This document shows, piece after piece, positions 4,186 to 55,466 of a stretch of DNA of 64,000 bases. The position numbers and the translations under genes are program-made. Each line of letters starts with the position of its first letter. The first letter of the stretch is position 1. The notes beneath the pieces were generated by a model. That model saw nothing but the letters and a program-made list of their open reading frames with translations, did no database searches and had not been told where the DNA came from. The stretch comes from a phage: sequence record PQ374922.1; one strand, given 5' to 3'.

Positions 4186-4200
4186 TTATTGGAGCAGTTT

Positions 4201-4860
4201 ATGTCCTACTCCCTGAAGGGGTTGATGAAGCGCCCCGTCCACACATTCTTTAAACCACCAGTCGTAAAGGGGATCTATCCAGCACGAGGGCAAATCTACT
4301 ACGTCAAAGGCTCCAATGGTAGCGGTAAATCCACTGTACCGTCTCAGCTGGCGGAGAGGGATCCTCAGGCGTATGTCGTGACCCATAACGGCAAGGTAAT
4401 GCTGACTGTCTGTCCTTCGTTCAACGTGGTCTGTATCGGTAAATATGACAAGTCGAAGTCCAAGGGGGTTGATTCCCTGAAGGACACTGAGCAGATGTTG
4501 TTCGCGTTGTCTATTGCTGACCAACCAGAATACTTGAAATATGATGTGATTTTCGAAGGTATCATTCCATCCACATTATTGAGTTCTTGGATCCCCCGCC
4601 TGACGCGCCCACCACGTGAATTGGTTGTGCTCTTTATGGACACTCCCCTTGAAACGTGTATCTCCCGCGTTAAATCACGTAACGGTGGTGTGGAATTCAA
4701 TGAAAGTCTGGTGGTCGAGAAGTGGGAGAGAGTTCATGACCATCGTCAACGACATAAAGACTTGTTCCCTACGGTAGCTGCGGGTATGATGAAGTCTCAC
4801 GGCCTAACGGTAGACCAGGCTGTGATGGCATTCCTCTGTCGTGATTTTGGGAGTATCTGA
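4201..4860 (+). CDS. P-loop NTPase/kinase of unknown specificity
   Basis: Walker A GSNGSGKST near residue 40; ATG at 4201 with GGAGCAG RBS; stop overlaps the start of the next gene (TGATG). Confidence 0.65.
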   Translation: MSYSLKGLMKRPVHTFFKPPVVKGIYPARGQIYYVKGSNGSGKSTVPSQLAERDPQAYVVTHNGKVMLTVCPSFNVVCIGKYDKSKSKGVDSLKDTEQMLFALSIADQPEYLKYDVIFEGIIPSTLLSSWIPRLTRPPRELVVLFMDTPLETCISRVKSRNGGVEFNESLVVEKWERVHDHRQRHKDLFPTVAAGMMKSHGLTVDQAVMAFLCRDFGSI

Positions 4861-5906
4861 TGGAAATCAAAGCAATTAACAACAATGACATGTTGAAGCA
4901 GGCTGTCTTGGCTATCCGTGAATTCGGGATCGAATCTGATCCTGGTAATGCTGAAATCAATACTGATAGCACCCGCTTCCTTGATGGTGTGACTATCACT
5001 GTTTCCGATATTCGTGACCGCTGGCTCTCCGTTGAAGGTCGCAACTCATCGGCTATCGCTGCCATCGGCGAGACCTTCTGGGTGTTGTCAGGTCGCAACG
5101 ACATAAAGTTCCTGTCACGCGTATTGCCTCGCGCTGCTAACTTTTCGGATGATGGGGTAACATGGCGAGCTGCTTATGGTCCGCGTCTGTACGCCCATGG
5201 CCAGCTGGATAGCGTTATCAACCGCCTGCGCAAGAACCCAAACACTCGCCAGGCGTACCTCACTATTTATGATCCGGCTTTGGATTCGGATGCTGGTCTG
5301 GCGAAGTTCAGCGAGAGCGGCGAAGCGAAGACCAAGGACATGGTGTGTAACCTGGCTCTGTTGTTCGCCATCGTTGAAGGTCGTCTGAACCTGACGGTCA
5401 TCAATCGCTCACAGGATGTTCTGTGGGGGATGAGTTCAATAAACTTCATTGAGTTCTCTATTCTTCAGGAAGTGATTGCTCGGGTGCTGGACGTTGACGT
5501 CGGTCAGTACAAGCTATTCTCTAATAATCTTCATTACTACAACAATGAAGTCAGCCAGAAGCAGCTGGGAAAGATCACGAAGGACACCAAAGTAGAAGCT
5601 GGGTTCATCAACTCCATGATTCACTTCACGAACGTGACCAACCAGAACCATATCCGCAATCTGTTCACTGGTGTGCTTCATCACTGTGATATCGGCAGCC
5701 CGTGGGAAACTGTGGTCGCCCACCTGAAGGAATATGATGCTGATCGTGGCCTGATTGTACAGATGGCGTACTGTCTGCACTGCAAACTGAACGAAAAGCT
5801 CATTAACCTGGACCTGATTCAGGATCATGGCTTGAACACCGCGCTCACGCATTCCCCGGTTGACCGCAAGATCATTGATCCTAAGTTCCTGGAAGGTGTA
5901 GTATGA
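4860..5906 (+). CDS. Thymidylate-synthase-fold pyrimidine C5 hydroxymethylase-like enzyme (gp42-like, divergent)
   Basis: TS-fold motifs: ETFWVLSGRNDIKFL (cf. ELLWFIKGSTNAKEL), RQAYLTIYDP, candidate catalytic Cys163 in DMVCNL, then 20 residues to RSQD as in TS (R166/D169). The canonical PCH and PFNIAS motifs are not conserved and there is a roughly 100-aa C-terminal extension. Confidence 0.7.
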   Translation: MEIKAINNNDMLKQAVLAIREFGIESDPGNAEINTDSTRFLDGVTITVSDIRDRWLSVEGRNSSAIAAIGETFWVLSGRNDIKFLSRVLPRAANFSDDGVTWRAAYGPRLYAHGQLDSVINRLRKNPNTRQAYLTIYDPALDSDAGLAKFSESGEAKTKDMVCNLALLFAIVEGRLNLTVINRSQDVLWGMSSINFIEFSILQEVIARVLDVDVGQYKLFSNNLHYYNNEVSQKQLGKITKDTKVEAGFINSMIHFTNVTNQNHIRNLFTGVLHHCDIGSPWETVVAHLKEYDADRGLIVQMAYCLHCKLNEKLINLDLIQDHGLNTALTHSPVDRKIIDPKFLEGVV

Positions 5907-6472
5907 TGTATCCAAATCTTGAATTCTTTACGGGGCGCAAGCGCTCCGGTAAGGACTTCTGTTTGGAGTCCCTGATCAGTTATCACCACTTACAGGGTGA
6001 TATGGACATCCAGCGCCTTTCGTTCTCGGATGAACTGCGCCGTGTGGCCAACTACATCTACCCATGGCTCCCAGCGGAGGTAGAGGATGCCGTGAAGGAC
6101 GTTCCTTACGTGCACCCTGATAACCCCAAGGGTTTAACTCCACGGCAGATCTGGCTTCATCTAGGCAGCGATACGGGCTTGCGTTACGTACAACCCGATC
6201 TGTTCCTGGCATTCTTCAAGCGCTTCCAGCTTCCTCTGGTAGAGCAGAACCCCCACGTTCATTATATCGTGAGCGATCTGCGTACCCCTCAGGAATATGA
6301 ATGGGCGCTGAGTACGAAATGTCCTATCACCCGTATTTCAAAGGCCGACCGTGCTGGTATCATAGAGGACGATATAGAGGCTTTCATTGACCAAATGAAA
6401 GTGGACTACGAATTCCTCAATCCATTTGATGGTTGGGAACCGTTCGTTAAATTCTACGGAGAACGTAAATGA
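5903..6472 (+). CDS. 1: Deoxynucleoside monophosphate kinase (T4 gp1-like)
   Basis: FFTGRKRSGKDF (cf. T4 gp1 FLSGVKRSGKDT) and HYIVSDLRTPQE (cf. YYIVPDTRQDHE); ATGA overlap with the upstream gene. Confidence 0.8.
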   Translation: MMYPNLEFFTGRKRSGKDFCLESLISYHHLQGDMDIQRLSFSDELRRVANYIYPWLPAEVEDAVKDVPYVHPDNPKGLTPRQIWLHLGSDTGLRYVQPDLFLAFFKRFQLPLVEQNPHVHYIVSDLRTPQEYEWALSTKCPITRISKADRAGIIEDDIEAFIDQMKVDYEFLNPFDGWEPFVKFYGERK

Positions 6473-7023
6473 TCACAGCAGGGCATATCAAAAGCCTGCT
6501 CGAACTCCAAAAGGCCACTAACGTGGCCTACTTTGGGGAAGAGTGGAAGAATGTATGGAGTCAGAACGCAGTCATCAACTCTATCTATCGTGAGTGGGCA
6601 GAGTTCCTTGATGAAACCACCCGTGACTGGAAGGTTTATGGCAACGACATCGGGTTTGATCATACGAACGCAGTTTATGAACTGGTGGACGTGGTACACT
6701 TCATGTTGTGCTTCATCCTTGTGGACCGCACCAAAGGTGAGATCGAAGAAGAATTTGAAGTCCTTAGTAATCGCGAATTCACCCCATCTGCTTTGGGTGT
6801 TGTAGGGCATCGCAATGTTACGTACCGCCTTGGGCAATTCATGAACGATCCTTGCGTTGAGACTCTCATGTTCTTCCTGTCGTCTGCGTGTTCTTATATG
6901 GAGATCGACATTGAGACTTACATACTGGCACACAAACGCAAGAACGATCGCAATCGCCTGCGTGCTGCTGGTGGCGCGGATTACGATAAGTCCGCAGAAA
7001 CCCCTCTGACCCTGGAGTTCTAA
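6469..7023 (+). CDS. All-alpha NTP pyrophosphatase (dCTPase/dUTPase gp56-like or MazG-like)
   Basis: Acidic helical pattern EWAEFLDETTRDW...YELVDVVHF typical of all-alpha NTP-PPases; ATGA overlap with gp1. Confidence 0.5.
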   Translation: MITAGHIKSLLELQKATNVAYFGEEWKNVWSQNAVINSIYREWAEFLDETTRDWKVYGNDIGFDHTNAVYELVDVVHFMLCFILVDRTKGEIEEEFEVLSNREFTPSALGVVGHRNVTYRLGQFMNDPCVETLMFFLSSACSYMEIDIETYILAHKRKNDRNRLRAAGGADYDKSAETPLTLEF

Positions 7024-12953: not shown

Positions 12954-13066
12954 ATTTAATTGAGTTTGTCCTGAAGTCGTTCGCCTTTGGTCTGATAGCA
13001 TGCGGGATGATTACAGCTGTGCTTCTCATCATAGCCCTGGTCATCCCCTTTAAGAGGAAACGTTGA
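12950..13066 (+). CDS. Small hydrophobic protein (38 aa, one TM helix)
   Basis: ATGA overlap with the upstream stop and TGATG overlap with the downstream start; GAGGAA RBS; sequence MNLIEFVLKSFAFGLIACGMITAVLLIIALVIPFKRKR. Confidence 0.4.
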   Translation: MNLIEFVLKSFAFGLIACGMITAVLLIIALVIPFKRKR

Positions 13067-13278
13067 TGGAATGTTCATGCGGAGGGCAGGGCACAAGTGC
13101 TTACCTGCCATTCACCACTGTGAAGGAAGCCGAAGCCGCTGGATTTGCCGTGGACAAGGCTCCCTGTGTAATCGCCACGAAGGATTGCCCGTGCTGTAAG
13201 AGGCACTCTCAGGACGTCTTCTACGCCCCTGATGCGCGTCCGGCTACGGTCAACCTGCTCTCACTGATGAGGAAGTGA
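13066..13278 (+). CDS. Small Cys-rich protein (about 70 aa)
   Basis: CSCGG...CPCCKRH motifs; translationally coupled to the small TM ORF. Confidence 0.45.
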   Translation: MECSCGGQGTSAYLPFTTVKEAEAAGFAVDKAPCVIATKDCPCCKRHSQDVFYAPDARPATVNLLSLMRK

Positions 13279-22925: not shown

Positions 22926-23435
22926 TTATTTGTCAGGGTTCACTAAAACAGGGGTGGATACCAGTTCGCCGTTCTTCACAGAATGCTGGACTACAACAAA
23001 CTGATCGACCATGCGATATACTTCAATTCCAGCAGCCAGCATGTCAATAATACCGTCTATGATACGATATGGTCGGTCATAGAACACTTTAGCGATCTTG
23101 CCACTGCCGATAATACGACGGGTGCACTCTGGGCATGGACTATGAGTGACAAACATCACTAGGCCACAACAGTCTTCAGTGTGCTGGGGGAGTTTGCTCA
23201 GAGCATTCTCCTCGGCGTGGATAACACCCACCGATACCAGTTGACCGTCTACTTCCTTCTCACAGACATTAGGAGCGCCAGGAGCAGTCCCGTTCCAACC
23301 GATAGACAGGGGCTGGTCAACACGCGGGTCAACGATAACACAGCCGACCTTCAGGCGCTGGGCATAGCTGGACAGAGCGTATGCATGAGCCGAGCGCATA
23401 TGCGCAAATAACATACGGGGTTTGATAGCCATCAC
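22926..23435 (-). CDS. cd: dCMP deaminase
   Basis: Zinc-dependent deaminase motifs HAEENAL and PCPECTRRI. Confidence 0.85.
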   Translation of the reverse strand: MMAIKPRMLFAHMRSAHAYALSSYAQRLKVGCVIVDPRVDQPLSIGWNGTAPGAPNVCEKEVDGQLVSVGVIHAEENALSKLPQHTEDCCGLVMFVTHSPCPECTRRIIGSGKIAKVFYDRPYRIIDGIIDMLAAGIEVYRMVDQFVVVQHSVKNGELVSTPVLVNPDK

Positions 23436-43815: not shown

Positions 43816-43983
43816 TTGGATTCTCCCATGACGATAACGGAAGCGCCAAAAGTCGCTTCCATGTTGAGTAGAGACATATCTTCAATTCGTTGCATTGCCA
43901 TGATGTATATTCTTGCAAAAAGAAAGGGGAACGGGCTAATAATAACCCATTCCCCTTTATTGAAGGAAGCAACCCCAGTCAGA

Positions 43984-44151
43984 TTACTTTTTCTTCAGCT
44001 CTTCCAGTTTGGCTTCGATCTGGTCCAGAATCTCTTTGCCTTTCTGAACAATCACTTCACCATCTTGCGCGTGTTTACGGAAGACCAGAGCACCAGCGAT
44101 GAAGCCGACAACCGCGCCAGGAAGCGCATAAACCAGCAGATCTTGTAACAT
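43984..44151 (-). CDS. Small membrane protein (55 aa) expressed from a late promoter
   Basis: ATG with GAGGA RBS; one TM helix (LLVYALPGAVVGFIAGALVF) plus amphipathic C-terminus; exact TATAAATA 29 nt upstream. Below the 60-aa cutoff of the ORF track. Confidence 0.45.
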   Translation of the reverse strand: MLQDLLVYALPGAVVGFIAGALVFRKHAQDGEVIVQKGKEILDQIEAKLEELKKK

Positions 44152-44187: not shown

Positions 44188-45423
44188 TCAGCGTTTCAAG
44201 AGTGTCATGAGGTTGACGCTGCTGGACTTCGGCTTGTCCTCAACCTTGCGCACAGGCATCTTCAGGTTCGTACATACCTCGGACGGTTCCCAGCGCGTAC
44301 CCTTTTGCAGGTGCCAGATATGCAGAGGAACACCAGTCTCAAAGAACACAGGCATCTTCCACTTCTGGACGCCTGGAACGTGCCCTACAGGAGCCTTTTC
44401 GCACAACAGGGTATCTGGCAGCCAGAGCGAACGGGCTTCCCAGAGCGCTGCGCAGGAGTATTCAGGCCAGACGCGTTCCATGTAGTCTATCTCATCCCAG
44501 GTACGCTCTGCGTCCCACCCGATGTAACGGGTATTCTTCAGTCGGAAGAATTTCTTCAGCCAACAAGCGCCGGAGGTTTCAAAGTTCAGGCGGTTGATGA
44601 ACGTCAGGTGCCCGAACTCAGCCACACAATCCTGGAACGCCTGCTCAAGGTCGGCCTCAAGGATGTCACACTCTTCATCCGTGATAGCACAACCGTTGAT
44701 CTTTTTCTTCCCGTGTTTAGTCACCCAATCGTCACGGTTGGACAAGAACGCCGCGCCATTACGGTTGGACTCGCTTCCATCACGATCACGCAGCATGAAG
44801 CCAGGGACGTCAATGGTGTATTCGTTCCCGAAGACCATGTTCAGGGCTTCCAGGAAGTTCCAGGCGCTCAGGCGACCGAAGTATTTCCAGGACATCGCCG
44901 TGTCCCACAGCTGGGTGAATTGTTCTGTCTTATCGATGCACACCAACATCCCACGGAAAGCGTCATATTGAGTACGGCCAGCCAGCCAGTCAATATAGGA
45001 CTGAACACACGGGATCATCTTGGACTTGCGGTAGCGACAGTCGGTATCGAATCGCATGCGTTCAAAGTTCAGATTATACCAATCAGAGAAGCGCTGCATC
45101 TCTTCCTTAGACTGAGGCGGCACAGGGAACTCACTGTAGATCGTCCACGGTCCGACGGCGTTATAGCAACAACCCCACAGGAATGCCATCCAGATCTTGC
45201 GCTCGACTTTCTGTTCGAGGCTGATGCCTTCAGTGACTTCGATCGCATAGTCCATCAGACGCATCTGCTGGTTGTGCTCTTCTGTGTAGGACAGCGCCTC
45301 CACCCAAGCCTTGAGCAGGTACATGCGATTCTCAGGCTTGCGATAATCAACAGCCAGGTCAATCGGGTACTTCCATTCAGCCGGAGGCGTATAGCCCGTC
45401 GGCATTTTAGATAAATGATGCAT
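44188..45423 (-). CDS. Hypothetical enzyme-sized protein (411 aa, Trp/aromatic-rich)
   Basis: Long ORF, last in an operon with the P-loop kinase; no nucleotidyltransferase KxDG or other motif recognised. Confidence 0.6.
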   Translation of the reverse strand: MHHLSKMPTGYTPPAEWKYPIDLAVDYRKPENRMYLLKAWVEALSYTEEHNQQMRLMDYAIEVTEGISLEQKVERKIWMAFLWGCCYNAVGPWTIYSEFPVPPQSKEEMQRFSDWYNLNFERMRFDTDCRYRKSKMIPCVQSYIDWLAGRTQYDAFRGMLVCIDKTEQFTQLWDTAMSWKYFGRLSAWNFLEALNMVFGNEYTIDVPGFMLRDRDGSESNRNGAAFLSNRDDWVTKHGKKKINGCAITDEECDILEADLEQAFQDCVAEFGHLTFINRLNFETSGACWLKKFFRLKNTRYIGWDAERTWDEIDYMERVWPEYSCAALWEARSLWLPDTLLCEKAPVGHVPGVQKWKMPVFFETGVPLHIWHLQKGTRWEPSEVCTNLKMPVRKVEDKPKSSSVNLMTLLKR

Positions 45424-45784
45424 CTTTCGCTTCCTCTTCAGGAGCCACAGCTTCAGGCTCAGGAGCCAGCTGAATGTCTTCTGGTTTCACGAACCCCATC
45501 GGACGTTCCCACATATCGACAAAGCGACGGTCAGCGGTCACGAACCACAGACGGGCTGCGGTGTGGGTCTTACTCGAGATGAACATCTGAGCGTTCGTCT
45601 GGGTACGGAACGGAGCAGCCTGCAACCACTTGCCAAAGTCTTTGGACGACGGATTGGCATTCAGTTGGAACTGAGGGATGACGCAGTTCTTTTCAGGAAT
45701 CAGGCGCACGGCAGTAATGTGCTTGGCGTTTCCGGTGTAGTCAATCGCAACAGCCACAGCATCGCGAGGGATTTGAATTTTCAT
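45407..45784 (-). CDS. Hypothetical protein (about 126 aa from internal ATG)
   Basis: ATG at 45784 with AAGGAA RBS, overlapping the stop of the upstream small ORF (ATGA). Confidence 0.45.
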   Translation of the reverse strand: MKIQIPRDAVAVAIDYTGNAKHITAVRLIPEKNCVIPQFQLNANPSSKDFGKWLQAAPFRTQTNAQMFISSKTHTAARLWFVTADRRFVDMWERPMGFVKPEDIQLAPEPEAVAPEEEAKDASFI

Positions 45785-45984
45785 TTTGGTTCCTTGAATA
45801 TTTTGTAACCAGCAGCGCCGATAGACATCACCGCGCCAATACAGTACATCACAGTCACGTTCAACTTCTCTGAGGTTGTTAAGTCCAGAGGGGTGAAATG
45901 ATAGGCTAGGGCAGTACACATTGAAACGGCTGCCATAACCAGACCAATGAACAACAGATAATTAGACAACCGTTTCATGATCAC
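45781..45984 (-). CDS. Small membrane protein (67 aa, two TM helices)
   Basis: LLFIGLVMAAVSMCTALAY and VMYCIGAVMSIGAAGY; coupled to neighbours on both sides. Confidence 0.45.
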   Translation of the reverse strand: MIMKRLSNYLLFIGLVMAAVSMCTALAYHFTPLDLTTSEKLNVTVMYCIGAVMSIGAAGYKIFKEPK

Positions 45985-46898
45985 CCCTTCTTCATCAGGT
46001 CAAGGAGAGAGCGCGACGCTGCCTTCGTTGCTTCTGGCTGGGCGCTCGCCTTGGTTTTAGTTTTGGATGCCTTCTGCGGCTTCTCAGGGACTCTGTGCGC
46101 CAAAGGATCATGGCCGCCAACCTCACGAGTCATCGGATTGGTTTCACAGTAGGCGTAGAAGTCTTTGGTGTGTATGTCAACACCACGCAGTTCAGAGCGT
46201 ATCTGATGACAAATCGCATTACCCACAACCCACAGCGGGGCGTCGAACGGTAGTACCGCCAACTCGGACTGCTGTTTGGTCGTGAACTCCTGGGTGTTGG
46301 CATCCGGTGATTTATACAGGATATCCTGTCCGCTGTAATCATCAACAGCCACAGTGAAGCCCAGCGCCAGCATTTCGGCCTTCGACTTCTCAAACTCCTT
46401 GTAGTAAGATTCGTTGCGCGACCAGCCGGAGTTCCCTGCTTCTTTACCAGATCGACCACGGATACGAGCATCGTACTGATAGCGGTCGGGGTACGCAAAG
46501 TACAGCAGCGCCAATGATTCAATCGGATAGTTCTTGAACATCCATTCAGGACGCCATTTGTCCGACAGCATGAGAGGTTCGCCCTCGCACACCAGAGTGT
46601 ATCCCTGAACCAACCAGCACTTGATTAGATCACGAGCAATATCGCCTGAGCCTGTAGCAGCATGGATTGCATCCATTGAAGTCCAGGAAGCCAGGCCGGA
46701 TTTGTTAGACACGGTGTACTGTCCAACGAAGATTAACTTCAGCTCTCCGAACTTCAAGCCAAACGGGCGAGTCTTGTCACCAACGGTGTAGGTCAGTTCG
46801 GTAGGCTCCAGCTTCGTACGGAGCCATTCGATGAACTGGACCACTCTCGTACCCTTGCCCGTGGCCGAGGTGCCTTTCACTACAATTATTTTAGCCAT
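45981..46898 (-). CDS. P-loop kinase-like protein (305 aa) with Lys/Ala/Thr-rich C-terminal tail
   Basis: N-terminal Walker A VKGTSATGKGT; no HAD DxDGT motif, so not a T4 Pnkp-type bifunctional enzyme. Confidence 0.6.
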   Translation of the reverse strand: MAKIIVVKGTSATGKGTRVVQFIEWLRTKLEPTELTYTVGDKTRPFGLKFGELKLIFVGQYTVSNKSGLASWTSMDAIHAATGSGDIARDLIKCWLVQGYTLVCEGEPLMLSDKWRPEWMFKNYPIESLALLYFAYPDRYQYDARIRGRSGKEAGNSGWSRNESYYKEFEKSKAEMLALGFTVAVDDYSGQDILYKSPDANTQEFTTKQQSELAVLPFDAPLWVVGNAICHQIRSELRGVDIHTKDFYAYCETNPMTREVGGHDPLAHRVPEKPQKASKTKTKASAQPEATKAASRSLLDLMKKG

Positions 46899-47577
46899 TT
46901 AATATTCTCCAACCGAGACATGTTTTAGCCCTACCTTTCAAGAGATTCGTTATATTACCGGAAGGGAGGCCATATTGAAGTTCCATGTCGCACCTCCTTA
47001 ACTCAACGATGCGACCATCTTTGTGCTGCCATTTGTAAATCTTTTCATCGCGACCAGGACCAATGTCTATCAGACCAAGAGCATGCAGCCTCTTCCTAGT
47101 TTCCCCTCCACGCGTTTGAGATTCAGAGGAAGGTCTTGGTGGTTTGGGGATCTTCCCTTCTGACATCAATTTGCTTATGATCTTACCCTTTCTGGCTTGT
47201 GCTTCAGGGGTGAGTCTTGGTGGAGGTTTAATCTTACCTTCAGCGATCAAACGTTTGCGGGTTGCGGCGCTCTTTGCGGATGACTCTGGCGTGGCCAATG
47301 GAGGCTTTCCACCCCCGACGACCATGTTGTAGCACCACCCAGAGTCAAGGATCTCCTGGCAGACCAGTTCAGACTCTATCTGAAGGATAACCGAATCTTT
47401 CCCTCGGAACAGAACTTCAAACTTGAACTGGTCTTCACCGTATTTCTTGAACGCTCGTTGTAATGCAATGCTTCCCTGACCACACTTATGCTCAGCCAAC
47501 CGCCTATCCGGTTCTGAGGTGACACCGACATAGAATTTATGATTGACGAGATTCGTTATCAGGTAGAGCGATAGCAT
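46891..47577 (-). CDS. GIY-YIG homing endonuclease (Seg-like)
   Basis: YLITNLVNHKFYVGVTSEPDRRLAEHK...FKKYGEDQFKFEVL (GIY-YIG); C-terminal repeated GKIKPPPRLTPE / GKIPKPPRPSSE DNA-binding-like modules. Confidence 0.85.
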   Translation of the reverse strand: MLSLYLITNLVNHKFYVGVTSEPDRRLAEHKCGQGSIALQRAFKKYGEDQFKFEVLFRGKDSVILQIESELVCQEILDSGWCYNMVVGGGKPPLATPESSAKSAATRKRLIAEGKIKPPPRLTPEAQARKGKIISKLMSEGKIPKPPRPSSESQTRGGETRKRLHALGLIDIGPGRDEKIYKWQHKDGRIVELRRCDMELQYGLPSGNITNLLKGRAKTCLGWRILNG

Positions 47578-47882
47578 TACACAGCATCCTCAATACGCCA
47601 GCTCACGCCGCCCAGCCAAGGTGCCCAGAACACAGCAACCTGTGGGCGGCCATTCTCTTCAAACTTCACTTTATACTGGTCGTCAAAGTTATAGAAGATT
47701 TCATCTGCTTCAGAGCGCTGGCCGATCTTCACCAGTACATCATGAAGAGCCTTGGCTGCACCGATAGGAGTTGGAGTCTCCTGCTGACGAATGAAGTTGT
47801 TCACATGGTTAATCACGCTATCCATGTCGCTATCACCGGAACGCTTGTCTGGGGTTTCCCCAAACTTGGATTGTTCTTGCAC
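47577..47882 (-). CDS. Hypothetical protein (101 aa)
   Basis: ORF; no motif recognised. Confidence 0.45.
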   Translation of the reverse strand: MQEQSKFGETPDKRSGDSDMDSVINHVNNFIRQQETPTPIGAAKALHDVLVKIGQRSEADEIFYNFDDQYKVKFEENGRPQVAVFWAPWLGGVSWRIEDAV

Positions 47883-47891
47883 GATGTCCTC

Positions 47892-48671
47892 CTATCGGAC
47901 GTATTGATAATGACTAATCAGGCGGTTAACCACTTCAACAATATTGTAATTCAGGAAGTCGAAGTGATTCTGGCCTTCTACTGGTTTAATATAAAGCATG
48001 TCTTCCGAATTCGAAAGATCCAGTTTTTCATAATTGCCCTGAGGAACAAAGATAACAAAGATGTTGTTCAGACCACACGGCTCGACATACTTCGGATTGT
48101 CATCAATCAGGACATCGCCTGCCAGCAGATGCTTTTCGTCGGTGCTGACAAACCCGTTGAAGATACCAGGGAACTTGTCGTAGACAAACTGGCGCTTGCT
48201 GCGCTCGTGTTCCGGCTCGCACTTCGACACCGCAACGAATTCAACATTGTCGAAATCTTCAAGCAAGATATCCTTCAGATTTACCAGGAACTCGTAAGCG
48301 CCGGGGAGCGGGTTCATCTTGGCGTACAAGTCAGGGCGACGCCACCAATCCATAGGATCGTTACCGCTTGGCACACGTTGTTTGTGCATCCCCAATTGGA
48401 CTTCATGGTATAGCCACGCCGGATGCGCACGTTCACGCATCAGAATAGCCAGGTCGCCAGCATGGGACATATAACACTCTTTGGTAATCGGCTGGAACTG
48501 GTATGACTTATGTTCCCCCGTAGCGATAGCAGCGGCGGCGATGTTCTCTTCGTTGAACCACTGCACCCAAGGGGAGAGGCTGTCGACCAACGTCAGGTCA
48601 ACATCCACGAGAACGCGATACAGGCCACCGACCTTTGATTTCATATCATAGATACAAACCAGGTTGTTCAT
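47892..48671 (-). CDS. HAD-superfamily phosphatase, 5'(3')-deoxyribonucleotidase-like
   Basis: HAD motif I VLVDVDLTLVD (DxDxT) near the N-terminus. Confidence 0.55.
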   Translation of the reverse strand: MNNLVCIYDMKSKVGGLYRVLVDVDLTLVDSLSPWVQWFNEENIAAAAIATGEHKSYQFQPITKECYMSHAGDLAILMRERAHPAWLYHEVQLGMHKQRVPSGNDPMDWWRRPDLYAKMNPLPGAYEFLVNLKDILLEDFDNVEFVAVSKCEPEHERSKRQFVYDKFPGIFNGFVSTDEKHLLAGDVLIDDNPKYVEPCGLNNIFVIFVPQGNYEKLDLSNSEDMLYIKPVEGQNHFDFLNYNIVEVVNRLISHYQYVR

Positions 48672-49018
48672 TTGTCTTCCTCAACTTTATCGTAGCCTGT
48701 AGCAACACACTGTTCTTCGGTACAATCTGCATACAGAACGACGGAGGCCTGCTTCACGTAGGTGATGCAGTGGTAAGTTTCGTCTTCCTGGATGGAATCG
48801 TCATAGTTGCAGACAGTTTGGAGCGGACCGGGGGTGGCGTTATCCAACGCCGCATGCGCCTTAATGGTGTCTTCCATCTTGGACACGGCCTGCTCATTGG
48901 TGAACGTCGGCGCGTCAAGGTCTACAGTAGAAGCAACGTCCAGAAGGGTGGAACACGCAGTGGTAGAGAAAGCCAGAGCGCACACCAGAAGAATCTTATT
49001 GAGTTTCATTTCAATCAC
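48668..49018 (-). CDS. Secreted protein or lipoprotein (116 aa, Cys-containing)
   Basis: N-terminal signal-like MKLNKILLVCALAFSTTACS with a possible lipobox; 4 further Cys in the mature part. Confidence 0.45.
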   Translation of the reverse strand: MIEMKLNKILLVCALAFSTTACSTLLDVASTVDLDAPTFTNEQAVSKMEDTIKAHAALDNATPGPLQTVCNYDDSIQEDETYHCITYVKQASVVLYADCTEEQCVATGYDKVEEDK

Positions 49019-49071: not shown

Positions 49072-52071
49072 TCAACCTTTCTTCTTTTGCATCATGGCAA
49101 GAAGGTTCACACGGCGCTTGTGTGACCAGCCGACCACGTCGAGGATAGACTGAATCGGATCAATGAAGGACTTCTCAAAGGCCGCCTGATAATCCACCCA
49201 TTTGCCCAGACCAAGCTCCTCGGGGAAGAACTCAGGATATGCAAAGTAGTTCTGCCCAAACGGGTTGCCCGGCTTCAACAACACCATCTGTACCTTATCA
49301 CCCGACTCGATCATCGGTAGACCCAGATCTTCGTTCTTCTCAACCAGACGGTTGTAGCCCACACACGCCTTGGCAGCAAAATGAGCACCAGATATAAACG
49401 AGCCGTCAGCAGCCACACACTTCTCTATGTCGGACACGCCTGACGCCTTGGCGATATCGTCTACAGAGAGTTTCATGTACTCCTCTTTGTACTGGGAGAT
49501 GAGCGTCTGTACTTCCTCTTCGGTGCCGAGTAGGATCTTCTCATAGCACTTGACAAGGCGCTCACGACACCATTCCGGCGTGGTGGACTTGCGGGCTTCC
49601 AGACCTTTGAACTTGATCTTCGGCTTCTCGTACTTGATACCCTCACTGTCGTACACGGCCATGGCATACATCTTCTTGGCTCGCCAGACAGCGGCTGACG
49701 CAATGACCTCACGCTCCCACACCATGCGCTGTTCAAATCCGTTCATGGTGTTACACAGAAGCTGTGCCCACTCATTGGTCTTCGGCTGGTAGTTGTCTTT
49801 GATCCATTGGTCGATATTATCAACCATAGCATGATGGTCAGTAACATCAGGCCACAACTGCTTGACAAGACGCTCAATGCAGATGTAGTTGGAGTCGGTA
49901 TCCCCTGCGATGACGAAGTCCTGGCCTGTTGTACCACACAGCTTGTTCAGATAGTCATCAGTGTAACGCTTGTTCCACTTGTTGATCAGCTGACCGGATG
50001 TGGTGATGGCTTCGGCAATGTTGAGGTTGAAGTACTCTTTGAACCAGACGTTCGAGATAGCGCCATAACCTGCGTTCATCAAGATCTTCAGACCTTGCTG
50101 TAGGGTATCTTGAGCGACGCCCAGGTCTTCCCACTTCTTCATCACTTCGGTCAGGGCATCAAGATCAATGTTCTTGTGCTCTTCATACCACTCTGGGTCA
50201 TAGTAGCGAGACTTTATGGCAGACTCAAGATGGAAGTCGCCCTTCGACATCTCTTTACACCAACCAGCCCACTGCTCATACTTCAGACCCTTGGCCTTCT
50301 CTACTTTACGGTCGCTGTAGATACCACGCATGATTTCAGACAGGAACGACATCTTCTCGTTGCTGAAGAATTGAACGTTCGGCGTGAACGACACGTTGTA
50401 GCGGCGCAGGGTTTCAAAGTGGAACTCACCCAGGGCAACCAACTCATCAACAACCTGCAGGCGTTCGTCAACCGCACGCAACATCTTGTCGTGAAGGGCT
50501 TTCATCAACCGACGTTTGTGCATCGGCGTTGCCATGTTATTCATCTGAGCAGCCAGCTCTTCACACATAGCCTCAATAATCTCGCGGCGCTGGTGTTTGT
50601 CGCCAACGATAGTCTCTGGACCGAGGTTGTACTGCTGTATGATGTGAGGATACAGGGAGTTCAAATCTTCCGAGAAGACCCAGAAGTAGATTCCTGGTGT
50701 CACATCCATGACGTATGCACCCTCAAAGTCGGTCGGACCATCGTATACACGCTGGATCTTAGGCACTATCCCCTTCTCGTACAGGCGATAGTAGCACATG
50801 GCCAGCCACGGAGCCACAGTGCCCAGACCGTCTTCATAGTTGGACTTGGTGCGGTAGGCCAGGACGAACATCAGCTGGAGCAGGCGCAGCTTCTGTTCAA
50901 GTCGCCATACCAGCTTAACGTCTTTGATACCATATCGGGTGTGTTTGCAGTAGTCGTTGAAGTACAGATCAAAGAGCGACTTGCTCTCACTGTAGTCCAT
51001 CTTCTTCTCACCCAGCTCACAATACGCAATCCAGTCAAGAGAGTAGCGTTCACGGGTGGTGTACGTGTGTTTCTTGTAGATCTGCATATAATCGAGCATA
51101 GGGCAACCCACGAACTGATACGTCGTGATATCGCCCTTCTTATCGCGAATGATACGCTTCTTAATGATACCCCAAGGACTGAGGCGCGACGTTTCAGCCT
51201 CACCCAGAACCTGATTCATGCGCTCAACAAGATAAGGGCTATCAAACGTCTCAATGTTCCAGCCTGTCCAGCCGTCGAACTGACGCTGTGACCAGAAGTC
51301 AAGGAACGAGCGCAGCAGATCTTGTTCGGTGGTGAACTCCTGATAAACAACCTCAAGACCGCCGATCTCTTTGTCTTCGGTGTCGTATGCGAATTTGTTA
51401 CGATCTTTGGCACAGGGCATACCCCAGACCATGAACTTATTGGTCGCCATATCCTGAAGCTGGATCAGGGTAATGGGGAACGCCGCATTCATGTCTTGGG
51501 TGATCTTGCCGTTGCTGTCAATGATAGGGAACTGATCAGTGACGTTGTTGCTGATGAAAGAACCAGGGAAGTGCTCACGGACAAAATCATGGTTGGCCAG
51601 AACTTGTTTATGGAAGCGGCGAATGCGCGCCTCATTCCCTTTGAACGTCTGCTGCTCAATGGTTGGGTGAGGGAATGGACCTTTGGTCATCTTTCCATCT
51701 TTCCACCCGGCGGAGAACACTTCGATATCGAGGTTAGCAATATGGATGTTGGAATAATCCGGCTCAATCTTTCCAGGAAAGCTATGGGCGATGAACTGGT
51801 ATGCATAATCGGTCTGCCCGTAAATGGCCGCACCCTGGACTTCCTTGTACTCTTCAAGATAGTTGTCAGCGTCACGCATGGAAGGGAACTGCTTGGCTAC
51901 CAGGGGTTCATTGAGAAGGCCGACCTTTTCAACATTTGAATAGTCAGCCGTGGGTAAATAGAGAGTGGGTTCGAATTTCTTTTTCAACAGACGGCGATTA
52001 CCCATGTCATCTGCAATTCGAATCAACAGGTCATTGCCCCTGCGGGCAACGTTCGTATAGAAAACGGTCAT
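49072..52071 (-). CDS. 43: DNA polymerase (gp43, family B) with 3'-5' exonuclease domain
   Basis: Exo I ANLDIEVF, Pol motif A DLNSLYPHII, motif C AGDTDSNYIC; overall collinear with T4 gp43. Confidence 0.95.
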   Translation of the reverse strand: MTVFYTNVARRGNDLLIRIADDMGNRRLLKKKFEPTLYLPTADYSNVEKVGLLNEPLVAKQFPSMRDADNYLEEYKEVQGAAIYGQTDYAYQFIAHSFPGKIEPDYSNIHIANLDIEVFSAGWKDGKMTKGPFPHPTIEQQTFKGNEARIRRFHKQVLANHDFVREHFPGSFISNNVTDQFPIIDSNGKITQDMNAAFPITLIQLQDMATNKFMVWGMPCAKDRNKFAYDTEDKEIGGLEVVYQEFTTEQDLLRSFLDFWSQRQFDGWTGWNIETFDSPYLVERMNQVLGEAETSRLSPWGIIKKRIIRDKKGDITTYQFVGCPMLDYMQIYKKHTYTTRERYSLDWIAYCELGEKKMDYSESKSLFDLYFNDYCKHTRYGIKDVKLVWRLEQKLRLLQLMFVLAYRTKSNYEDGLGTVAPWLAMCYYRLYEKGIVPKIQRVYDGPTDFEGAYVMDVTPGIYFWVFSEDLNSLYPHIIQQYNLGPETIVGDKHQRREIIEAMCEELAAQMNNMATPMHKRRLMKALHDKMLRAVDERLQVVDELVALGEFHFETLRRYNVSFTPNVQFFSNEKMSFLSEIMRGIYSDRKVEKAKGLKYEQWAGWCKEMSKGDFHLESAIKSRYYDPEWYEEHKNIDLDALTEVMKKWEDLGVAQDTLQQGLKILMNAGYGAISNVWFKEYFNLNIAEAITTSGQLINKWNKRYTDDYLNKLCGTTGQDFVIAGDTDSNYICIERLVKQLWPDVTDHHAMVDNIDQWIKDNYQPKTNEWAQLLCNTMNGFEQRMVWEREVIASAAVWRAKKMYAMAVYDSEGIKYEKPKIKFKGLEARKSTTPEWCRERLVKCYEKILLGTEEEVQTLISQYKEEYMKLSVDDIAKASGVSDIEKCVAADGSFISGAHFAAKACVGYNRLVEKNEDLGLPMIESGDKVQMVLLKPGNPFGQNYFAYPEFFPEELGLGKWVDYQAAFEKSFIDPIQSILDVVGWSHKRRVNLLAMMQKKKG

Positions 52072-54272: not shown

Positions 54273-55466
54273 TCAGGAAGGGGTGAATTCGTTTACAGGT
54301 ACTGCTTCGGGGATAGCCAGTTCAGGACATGCTGCCTTCATCGGCTCGATGTATGGCTTGCTACCCACAATCCAGAACAGAGTGTTCTCGTTGAGCAACT
54401 CGGGCTTGTGTTGCTGAACCCAGGTCATGACCTTGCCTTCATAGCGAGGGTGCAACTCAATATCACCCCACTGATATTCCATCAGGTCATTGTAACGAAC
54501 CCAATTAGTGGTATGAAGATCCCAATGGTGTACCTCAAAGCGAGGAAGCACGACCTCTGGCTCTTCCTTCTGCCTGATACCACTTAGGAGGCCAGCCAGC
54601 GAAACGCTCTTAGAGGCATGCTGAAGCTCCTTCTTGCCGTGTACATAGTCTGGGTTGTCGTGATAGCGACGGGTGAAGTCGACAATGTGCGGCAGATTGG
54701 CATGTTTGCCGATGATGCGCAGACGGCTCTCAATGAAGTCCAGGCGGTTCGGACCGATGCCAATCAGATACACACGCTTCAGATTAGGCTTCGGATGCAT
54801 TGCCAGCCCGGTCAGAATGCTTGTGCAAGAGTTGCACGATCCGGCTGGGATAATCAGATCGGTAATATGGTCAGGGATGTTGGCAACCTGCTCGCCACCC
54901 AGCATATGGAAGCCAGCGATGCGCTCAGGAGAATGCGCTGTATGGTCGAGGGTGATACCATATTCCAGATAATACGCCTTTGGATTCTGTTGTTCGATCA
55001 ACTTCTTACAGCGCGGCTGGATCGTGCTGTTGTAACCCGAGCCGACGAAGTTGAACTCACTACCAAACCAGGCTGACATTGCCACCATGTCGTGGTTCAT
55101 ACAGGTGGTGGGTTTGGTCGCTCCGAGTACAGTGGTTGTCTTGCCGCCGAAGTGCCGAGAGACTGCTGTCGCCATAGGGGACTGCGGACTACCAACGACA
55201 GTACCATGGATGATGTCAGGGGAGCCTCCGGCCTTGAGGTGCTCAACCATCAACCAGATGGCCTGGCGGAGTTTGCTGCCGTTGATGCCCTGCTGGCCAT
55301 TTGCATAATTGGATAGCGGCGCAAAATAATCTTCACGCTTGAACCAGACCTGCTGGTTGGTTTCGGGGTTGACGACAAGTTCGCACGGGGTGTGCTTGTA
55401 GAGATAATCTTCCCAATGGACCAGGTTGCGGTCGAGGGAAAGGGTATCGAAGATGGTCTTGTTCAT
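54273..55466 (-). CDS. PLP-dependent enzyme of the tryptophan-synthase-beta fold (ACC deaminase / D-cysteine desulfhydrase-like)
   Basis: WFKREDYFAPL...NGSKLRQAIWLM (cf. DcyD FIKRDD...GGNKLRKLEFL, with Lys as the PLP-binding residue) and Gly-rich IIPAGSCNSCTS (cf. IPVGGSNALG). Confidence 0.6.
   Translation of the reverse strand: MNKTIFDTLSLDRNLVHWEDYLYKHTPCELVVNPETNQQVWFKREDYFAPLSNYANGQQGINGSKLRQAIWLMVEHLKAGGSPDIIHGTVVGSPQSPMATAVSRHFGGKTTTVLGATKPTTCMNHDMVAMSAWFGSEFNFVGSGYNSTIQPRCKKLIEQQNPKAYYLEYGITLDHTAHSPERIAGFHMLGGEQVANIPDHITDLIIPAGSCNSCTSILTGLAMHPKPNLKRVYLIGIGPNRLDFIESRLRIIGKHANLPHIVDFTRRYHDNPDYVHGKKELQHASKSVSLAGLLSGIRQKEEPEVVLPRFEVHHWDLHTTNWVRYNDLMEYQWGDIELHPRYEGKVMTWVQQHKPELLNENTLFWIVGSKPYIEPMKAACPELAIPEAVPVNEFTPS

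Follow-up and report, generated by a model that had tools for sequence, protein, structure and literature searches.

The four minus-strand genes at positions 44188-46898 of a 64,000-nucleotide (nt) stretch of phage DNA (sequence record PQ374922.1; the whole stretch is called the window here) very probably form the central part of the thymidine-hypermodification pathway of the Ackermannviridae, a reading to which we assign a probability of about 0.93. The two large genes encode a predicted 5-hydroxymethyl-dU (5-hmdU) DNA kinase of 305 amino acids (aa) and a predicted serine:DNA transferase of 411 aa, close orthologs of the biochemically characterised enzymes gp243 and gp247 of phage ViI, and the predicted product in this phage is 5-(2-aminoethoxy)methyl-dU (5-NeOmdU). 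The biochemical steps were shown for the ViI orthologs and are carried over to this phage by 84-92% identity, conserved catalytic residues and synteny. The original prediction had been of a system, its chemistry unknown, that modifies or salvages nucleotides or sugars. The modification part stands, as a system acting on DNA bases, but the chemistry is known through gp243 and gp247; both proteins have clear homologs of established function, and these are found in ViI rather than in T4, the phage that had been named as the reference. The kinase and the transferase also end in a peptide resembling the C-terminus of the phage's own DNA polymerase, which may dock them on the sliding clamp.

The window is 97.4% identical to Escherichia phage AV101 by nucleotide comparison over a 5.1-kb region, and this region matches 278 phage records, nearly all of them Ackermannviridae, with Salmonella, Klebsiella, Escherichia, Dickeya, Serratia and Shigella as hosts. 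Because of these matches we place the window in an Agtrevirus-like member of the family. The block is thus already known: its pathway has been published, and the phage is 97% identical to an isolate that has been sequenced. The practical value of the assignment is the annotation of genes now called hypothetical or "guanylate kinase". All four open reading frames (ORFs) first called in the block are real and lie on the minus strand, with their start and end positions borne out.

The predicted serine:DNA transferase and 5-hmdU DNA kinase

The two enzymes of the block are:

44188..45423, minus strand: amino acid:DNA transferase (aGPT-Pplase clade 2), predicted serine:DNA transferase, ViI gp247 ortholog, 411 aa (PF18724 ADDT)
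45981..46898, minus strand: predicted 5-hydroxymethyl-dU DNA kinase, clade 2 (kinase 2), ortholog of ViI gp243, 305 aa (PF18747 HMUD2)

The 411-aa protein matches PF18724 over residues 49-292 (E 1.1e-59, 202.4 bits, cut-off 26.2) and is 89% identical, ungapped over 411 aa, to ViI gp247 (Vi01_199, orf00247, YP_004327568), which is listed as "serine:DNA transferase" in Table 1 of Lee et al. 2021 (PMC8989533). Purified gp247 adds L-serine to the phosphorylated base, as confirmed by isotope label, through an O-linkage, and Cys-to-Ala and Glu-to-Ala mutants of both ViI gp247 and M6 gp51 are inactive (PMC8989533). The catalytic pair of the window enzyme, Glu282...Cys287, is encoded at 44563-44580, and both residues are among only nine invariant columns in an alignment of seven transferases that spans Ackermannviridae, a Vibrio phage, Cr30, a mycobacteriophage, PaMx11 gp46 and M6 gp51. 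They align with E243 and C247 of PaMx11 gp46 in the same register by MAFFT and by hhalign (E 0.0016, probability 16%, from shallow profiles), and in crystal structures of gp46 (PDB 8Z2M/8Z2N; PMC11472151) the nucleophile is proposed to be Cys247. A three-sequence transferase profile did not retrieve the gp46 structure from the PDB, so the link to gp46 comes from MAFFT and hhalign; PDB sequence searches with single sequences gave no match for either the kinase or the transferase.

The transferase gene co-occurs with 5-hmdU DNA kinase genes and a thymidylate-synthase-like gene, with kinase 2 lying 558 nt upstream. Serine is taken to be the acceptor, and O-serinyl-thymidine (O-SerT) the product, because of the 89% identity to gp247 and the presence of a gp226-type pyridoxal phosphate (PLP)-dependent decarboxylase, and we infer that the 411-aa protein is a serine:DNA transferase. 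Transfer of another nucleophile (glycine, putrescine or glutamate, as in M6, PhiW-14 and SP10) to give a different hypermodified base would fit the variation in acceptor specificity within the family, the 44 of 411 residues that differ from gp247 and the fact that the base of this phage is itself a prediction. It is nevertheless very improbable in view of the 89% ungapped identity to a serine enzyme, the 92% identity of the partner PLP decarboxylase to its ViI counterpart, and the lack, in those window ORFs that were examined, of any radical SAM, FAD lyase or acetyltransferase partner.

The 305-aa protein matches PF18747, "5-hmdU DNA kinase 2" (E 3.1e-157, 522.8 bits, cut-off 25), over its full length, residues 1-304 of 305 covering profile positions 1-298 of 298. 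It is 84% identical to ViI gp243 (Vi01_196, orf00243, YP_004327565), has the same neighbours, and its ViI counterpart is the "5-hmdU DNA kinase" in Table 1 of Lee et al. 2021 (PMC8989533). ViI gp243 yields the same phosphorylated 5-hmdU nucleotide as M6 gp54, for which transfer of 32P-phosphate from ATP to DNA has been demonstrated (PMC8989533). The N-terminal Walker A motif that had first drawn attention to this protein, GTSATGKGT, is present at residues 9-17 (encoded at 46848-46874; GTSGTGKGT in ViI). The earlier view that this P-loop kinase is not of the T4 Pnkp type also holds, since its sole Pfam match is HMUD2 and there is no HAD domain: no Pfam match to a C-terminal HAD/DxDxT phosphatase domain appears at E values up to 0.1. 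We infer from the orthology to ViI gp243 that the 305-aa protein phosphorylates 5-hmdU in DNA.

GenBank records mostly label both genes as hypothetical protein or "guanylate kinase". The matching PHROG of the 305-aa protein (phrog_4409) and RefSeq use the latter name, and a P-loop is indeed present, as it would be in a guanylate or dNMP kinase that acts on free nucleotides of the pool rather than on DNA. This assignment can be given almost no weight: the protein has no Pfam guanylate-kinase match, its only match being the full-length HMUD2, ViI gp243 acts on 5-hmdU inside DNA, and a separate dNMP-kinase-like gene (5903-6472) adjoins the hydroxymethylase gene.

The rest of the pathway and the proposed chemistry

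The other pathway genes found in the window are:

4189..4860, plus strand: predicted 5-hmdU DNA kinase, clade 1 (kinase 1), ViI gp67 ortholog (PF18748, E 6.3e-109)
4860..5906, plus strand: thymidylate-synthase-family enzyme, predicted dUMP hydroxymethylase (PF00303, E 1.1e-15)
5903-6472: dNMP-kinase-like gene
6469-7023: dUTPase
22926-23435: dCMP deaminase
54273..55466, minus strand: PLP-dependent decarboxylase, ViI gp226 ortholog (92% identical to ViI YP_004327553)

The thymidylate-synthase-family gene is positioned like ViI thyA (orf00066), adjoining gp67. In the PLP decarboxylase, PF00291 is matched at E 3.1e-7 and 30.5 bits, under Pfam's 35-bit gathering cut-off, and K65 aligns with ViI K92, the proposed PLP-binding residue of gp226, an enzyme that decarboxylates O-SerT to 5-(2-aminoethoxy)methyl-dU (PMC8989533). 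Compared with ViI, the window's decarboxylase gene has an in-frame loss of 27 codons right after Met-Asn (55380-55466) and encodes 397 instead of 424 aa; its upstream ribosome-binding-site region is 98% identical to ViI, and the gene of the relative RPN242 is annotated at 424 aa. An ortholog of ViI gp160 (aGPT-Pplase1) is absent from the window by tblastn (best E 0.5), and we therefore place it elsewhere in the genome.

Before replication, as the gene set and the literature suggest, dCMP deaminase, dUMP hydroxymethylase, dNMP kinase and dUTPase would supply 5-hmdUTP, and the family B polymerase would incorporate 5-hmdU in place of T. After replication, the 305-aa kinase would phosphorylate 5-hmdU in duplex DNA at its 5-hydroxymethyl group, with the gamma-phosphate coming from ATP, to give 5-phosphomethyl-dU. 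The 411-aa transferase would then flip out this base, with Cys287 attacking C6 and Glu282 assisting; phosphate would be expelled to give an exocyclic methylene, which would be captured by the side-chain hydroxyl of free L-serine to yield O-SerT. Finally, the PLP enzyme would decarboxylate O-SerT to 5-NeOmdU, a base that blocks many restriction enzymes.

According to a 2024 review, the modification genes are all conserved across the Ackermannviridae, and 5-NeOmdU replaces ~40% of T in ViI and CBA120 (PMC11721090). It is from the ViI biochemistry together with this family-wide conservation that the chemistry of the block is known. Some points count against so complete a picture. The modified base was measured in ViI and CBA120, and for this phage, as for Agtrevirus, it is deduced from sequence; the serine specificity of the 411-aa enzyme is taken from its identity to gp247; and the literature has yet to settle what a second pair of kinase and transferase, of the gp67 and gp160 types, does.

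A variable endonuclease gene beside a core block

One further gene adjoins the kinase gene:

46891..47577, minus strand: free-standing SegD-like GIY-YIG homing endonuclease, between the DUF7254 gene and the kinase gene (PF01541, phrog_19446)

The GIY-YIG endonuclease (PF01541 E 5.6e-8, 33.4 bits against a cut-off of 22.6; phrog_19446 E 1.4e-103) does adjoin the block, as first described; it is the next gene upstream, with an 8-nt overlap at the kinase start. The accompanying idea that the block is horizontally acquired cargo bounded by this endonuclease fails on comparison with relatives. When the locus is aligned to ViI by blastn, window positions 49200-47575 and 46899-43900 fall on adjacent ViI segments that overlap by four bases, while 46900-47574 has no ViI counterpart, and in ViI the stop of the DUF7254 gene directly adjoins the start of the kinase gene. 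Query coverage in many relatives is 87%, matching a loss of ~680 bp, that is, these relatives are without the endonuclease. The block itself is kept in 278 records by DNA comparison and in 379 by protein comparison, and is syntenic in ~280 Ackermannviridae genomes as well as in Vibrio relatives. Presence and absence across relatives, one of the checks first proposed, thus finds the block kept with or without the endonuclease, the GIY-YIG gene being the variable part. By these comparisons the GIY-YIG gene is best seen as an unrelated selfish insertion, and the block as core to the family. A modification or salvage system of unknown chemistry, carried as cargo beside a mobile homing endonuclease, would agree with the mostly hypothetical or "guanylate kinase" GenBank labels and with the GIY-YIG gene next to the kinase, but is barely tenable for a block that is syntenic in the family and its Vibrio relatives, with or without the endonuclease, and whose two proteins are close orthologs of characterised ViI enzymes.

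The site upstream of the kinase gene is a homing-endonuclease hot spot seen in three states: empty (ViI), occupied by a free-standing GIY-YIG gene (the window), and fused. In the fused state, a kinase allele and a different GIY-YIG domain are parts of a single 532-aa ORF, as in Enterobacter phage fGh-Ecl02 (locus L011, 2482-4080), ZQ1, PC3 and YX22. The fGh-Ecl02 kinase allele is 49% identical to the window kinase overall, with the last 53 residues identical, and its transferase is 99.8% identical to that of the window. The pattern looks like an allele replacement linked to the endonuclease, in which the junction falls within the 3' end of the kinase gene. The fusion family is apparently represented by PHROG 15209, which is labelled "endonuclease" and which the kinase matches at positions 203-497 of a 497-position profile.

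C-terminal tails shared with the DNA polymerase

The kinase and the transferase end in short peptides that resemble the C-terminus of the phage's DNA polymerase. The tails and their further carriers in the window are:

45984..46016, minus strand: kinase C-terminal tail SRSLLDLMKKG, candidate sliding-clamp docking peptide
44191..44220, minus strand: transferase C-terminal tail SVNLMTLLKR, candidate sliding-clamp docking peptide
49072..52071, minus strand: family B (T4 gp43-like) DNA polymerase, 999 aa (PF03104, PF00136)
49075-49113, minus strand: DNA polymerase C-terminal tail RVNLLAMMQKKKG
13066..13278, plus strand: 70-aa Cys-rich zinc-ribbon-like protein, ViI Vi01_049c ortholog (tail VNLLSLMRK, 13249-13275)

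The consensus of the four window tails is [VS][NS]L[LM]xx[LM]..K. A loose pattern of this kind within four residues of the C-terminus is found in only 5 of 1794 six-frame ORFs of the complete ViI genome, all five of them annotated genes (the polymerase, gp243, gp247, gp160 and Vi01_049c). Because the loose pattern was derived from the same proteins, we repeated the ViI scan with the seven-residue core of the polymerase tail alone, a 7-mer being used since an ungapped scan with a 12-mer of the polymerase tail missed the transferase owing to its C-terminal register. The top four non-self matches were again the same four proteins, with scores of 29, 24, 20 and 19, the next score being 14. No polymerase-type tail was seen on kinase 1 or the PLP enzyme.

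A comparison of 16 distinct enteric sequences shows conservation of the globular end and of the terminal motif, with a linker of 10-25 residues between them that varies in sequence and length. The clamp-binding tail of T4 gp55 has the same architecture of a variable linker and then a terminal motif (PMC2988020). The polymerase tail is positionally homologous to the T4 gp43 tail ...KASLDFLFG, and the C-terminal tail of T4/RB69 gp43 binds the gp45 clamp (PMC3012046, PMC2988020).

The 70-aa zinc-ribbon protein (CxCGG...CPCCK) has no Pfam family, is encoded upstream of the DNA ligase gene and is conserved in ViI and in Vibrio phage K444 (VPHK444_0080). In the window phage, ViI and K444 it carries each phage's own polymerase-type tail, and it may be an unrecognised replisome accessory protein.

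Other lineages have tails of their own. In K444 the polymerase, kinase 2, the transferase, the gp160-like protein and the zinc-ribbon ortholog (blastp E 1e-7) all end in K[KR]LW. Only 7 of 1409 K444 ORFs have this ending, five of which are this set, and a search with just the polymerase tail ranks them highest. KTKRLF is the ending of the K444 gp33 homolog, and ...KSKKLI, nearer the K444 KKLW type, that of ViI gp33; the C-terminus of T4 gp33 is a gp45-binding epitope (PMC2988020). Delftia phage PhiW-14 has a third, LGxFF-type tail on the polymerase (..KLGAFFV), gp33 (..SLGGFAAT), the kinase gp37 (..GLGGFFKG), gp72 (..TLAQFAP) and the putrescine transferase gp109 (..GLGSFFR). With the PhiW-14 polymerase tail as query, an NrdA.1-like protein scores 24, gp109 21, an exonuclease 20 and gp37 20, against a control maximum of 14. 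The exonuclease (gene 32; locus L046, 26496-27356) and the NrdA.1-like protein (gene 98; locus L047, 31188-31487) end in ..GLGGFFA and ..GLGAFFT, and because of these polymerase-type endings the PhiW-14 tail appears to mark a wider replisome-associated set. There are thus three tail types (enteric VNLLxMM, K444 K[KR]LW and PhiW-14 LGxFF), each common to the kinase, the transferases and the polymerase and/or gp33. The enzymes of the siphoviruses M6 and PaMx11 have no common tail. In Caulobacter phage Cr30, compared without its polymerase, the transferase-like protein ends in DKWFKVL, unlike the gp55 tail.

On balance we favour the reading that kinase 2, the transferase and the gp160-type paralog are sliding-clamp clients in phages with a T4-type replisome, each using the lineage-specific tail of its own polymerase and/or gp33, so that hypermodification would be coupled to the fork while kinase 1 and the PLP decarboxylase would be untethered. 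The C-terminal peptides would dock the kinase and the transferase on the gp45-type clamp, and the enzymes would work directly behind the fork.

Basic and hydrophobic sequences are also characteristic of MinD/FtsA-type membrane targeting. The enteric tails have this composition, and it is possible, if distinctly less likely than clamp docking, that they are amphipathic membrane-targeting segments, unspecific basic DNA-binding segments or ligands of another hub such as gp32 or a chaperone. Against these functions, the polymerase tail and the clamp-binding tail of T4/RB69 gp43 occupy exactly the same position; the K444 and PhiW-14 gp33 homologs carry the tail type of the enzymes, and the C-terminus of T4 gp33 binds gp45; and the K-K-L-W end, at four residues, is too short for an amphipathic helix. 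T4 alpha-glucosyltransferase also offers a precedent for a DNA-modifying enzyme bound to gp45, with which it co-purifies (Sommer et al. 2004; PMC13216743).

Several observations temper the case for clamp docking. The docking is read from sequence, with the clamp gene lying beyond the window, and it was in these very proteins that the motif first came to notice. The ViI gp243 and gp160 scores (20 and 19) are no higher than those of the best internal-window controls (20 and 19), and since these controls reach 20 the two lower ViI scores carry no significance by themselves. Neither tail type is clearly present on ViI gp55. At marine loci L036-L038 the enzymes carry KLW and the polymerase keeps a VNVF-type tail, so covariation of the tails with the polymerase is not one-to-one.

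Tail sharing and clamp docking are not mentioned in Lee et al. 2018 or 2021, nor in the literature searched, whose coverage excluded subscription journals, and the shared C-terminal tails on hypermodification enzymes are apparently unreported. If the tails act as proposed, they would show how hypermodification enzymes find nascent DNA, and base-hypermodifying enzymes would join the clamp "toolbelt", a parallel to T4 alpha-glucosyltransferase with gp45. The tails would also suggest a rationale for the two kinases and two transferase paralogs kept by these phages, and deletion or swapping of tails would offer a handle for tuning modification in engineered phages or enzymatic DNA-labelling tools.

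Small ORFs, neighbouring genes and layout

The remaining features of the locus are:

45781..45978, minus strand: predicted two-helix membrane protein, 65 aa, counterpart of ViI orf00244 (phrog_4514, E 1.5e-34)
45407..45784, minus strand: soluble protein, 125 aa, counterpart of ViI orf00245
43984-44151: 55-aa ORF after the transferase gene
47577..47882, minus strand: DUF7254 protein, 101 aa, conserved neighbour (PF23912, E 1.8e-52)
47892..48671, minus strand: HAD-family NT5C-like 5'(3')-deoxyribonucleotidase (PF06941, E 1.2e-8)
48668..49009, minus strand: DUF7292 lipoprotein-like protein, signal peptide then Cys (PF23964, E 6e-53)
49075-49046, minus strand: promoter-like site, 10/12 sigma-70-like, just past the polymerase stop (consensus scan only)
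43923-43958, minus strand: terminator-like hairpin, 16 pairs and a T-run, after the 55-aa ORF (consensus scan only)

The membrane ORF is 67 aa as called mechanically, and its likely start gives 65 aa. For the soluble protein, mechanically called at 170 aa, we chose the start that gives 125 aa, since the PHROG match sets in only at residue 46 and the gene is annotated at 378 nt in relatives. Both small ORFs are conserved in enteric Ackermannviridae and diverge faster than the enzymes, with 32% (65-aa) and 58% (125-aa) identity to ViI as against 84-89%. Vibrio phage K444 is without either of them, its kinase gene abutting the transferase gene (locus L008, 3196-5182), and neither belongs to the set of five ViI proteins whose lysates reconstituted the modification in vitro. 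Among 5.8 billion proteins, the 125-aa protein has 12 clusters of relatives, all at least 59% identical; its AlphaFold2 model is confident, and no solved structural relative was found. We treat both ORFs as accessory.

In the direction of transcription, the order is DNA polymerase, DUF7292, NT5C-like, DUF7254, GIY-YIG, kinase, the two small ORFs, transferase and the 55-aa ORF. The HAD nucleotidase and the lipoprotein, which had been said to follow the block nearby, are both real genes, but they lie upstream of it in transcription, between the polymerase and the kinase. The kinase stop ends 2 nt ahead of the ATG of the 65-aa ORF, the 65-aa and 125-aa genes are joined by an ATGA overlap, and the 125-aa gene overlaps the transferase gene by 17 nt, touching and overlapping stops and starts that are compatible with translational coupling. 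With the promoter-like site and the terminator-like hairpin taken as bounds, the transcription unit may, by pattern matching, comprise nine genes rather than four.

Phage dTMPases deplete dTMP in hydroxymethyluracil phages. The NT5C-like gene is syntenic between the polymerase and the kinase in enteric relatives and has a weak match (26-28% identity) at the same position in Vibrio relatives; by analogy its product is a candidate dTMP-pool depleter that could let 5-hmdU replace T. The polymerase gene is one intact 999-aa ORF in the window and is annotated in two pieces around an inserted ORF in RPN242 (locus L003, 13440-17622), probably through an intron or endonuclease insertion.

Comparison with known systems

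The nearest known system is that of ViI, described by Lee et al. in 2018 (PNAS) and 2021 (NAR). It has the same gene order of polymerase, DUF7292, NT5C-like, DUF7254, kinase, two small ORFs, transferase and 55-aa ORF, and shares with the window phage the partner genes gp67, gp226 and thymidylate-synthase-like as well as the C-terminal tails. The window phage differs in having a GIY-YIG gene before the kinase, a PLP enzyme shorter by 27 N-terminal codons, and a small membrane ORF that is only 32% identical.

PaMx11 gp46 (PUGT, 8Z2M/8Z2N) and M6 gp51 belong to the same Pfam family as the 411-aa transferase and have the same Glu...Cys pair and the same proposed mechanism, with a covalent Cys-C6 adduct and an exocyclic methylene. 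They are only ~17-19% identical to it, are ~120 aa shorter and lack the C-terminal extension and tail; their acceptor is glycine, joined through an N-linkage, and their phages are siphoviruses without a T4-type replisome. T4 Pnkp, like the 305-aa protein, has an N-terminal P-loop kinase acting on nucleic acid, but the 305-aa kinase has no HAD phosphatase domain and no Pfam Pnkp match, and its predicted substrate is the hydroxymethyl group of a base rather than a 5'-OH end, so that it is not a member of that group.

For the tails, the closest parallel is with gp43, gp33 and gp55 of T4/RB69, in which an extreme C-terminal hydrophobic peptide after a variable linker is likewise common to the polymerase and clamp clients. 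The T4 tail is acidic (SLDFLF) and that of the window phage basic (VNLLxMMxKK); binding is known for the T4 proteins, whereas the clients proposed here are hypermodification enzymes with predicted docking. T4 alpha-glucosyltransferase has no polymerase-like C-terminal tail and differs in chemistry and base, but it too is a post-replicative base-modifying enzyme, and one that is physically associated with the phage sliding clamp.

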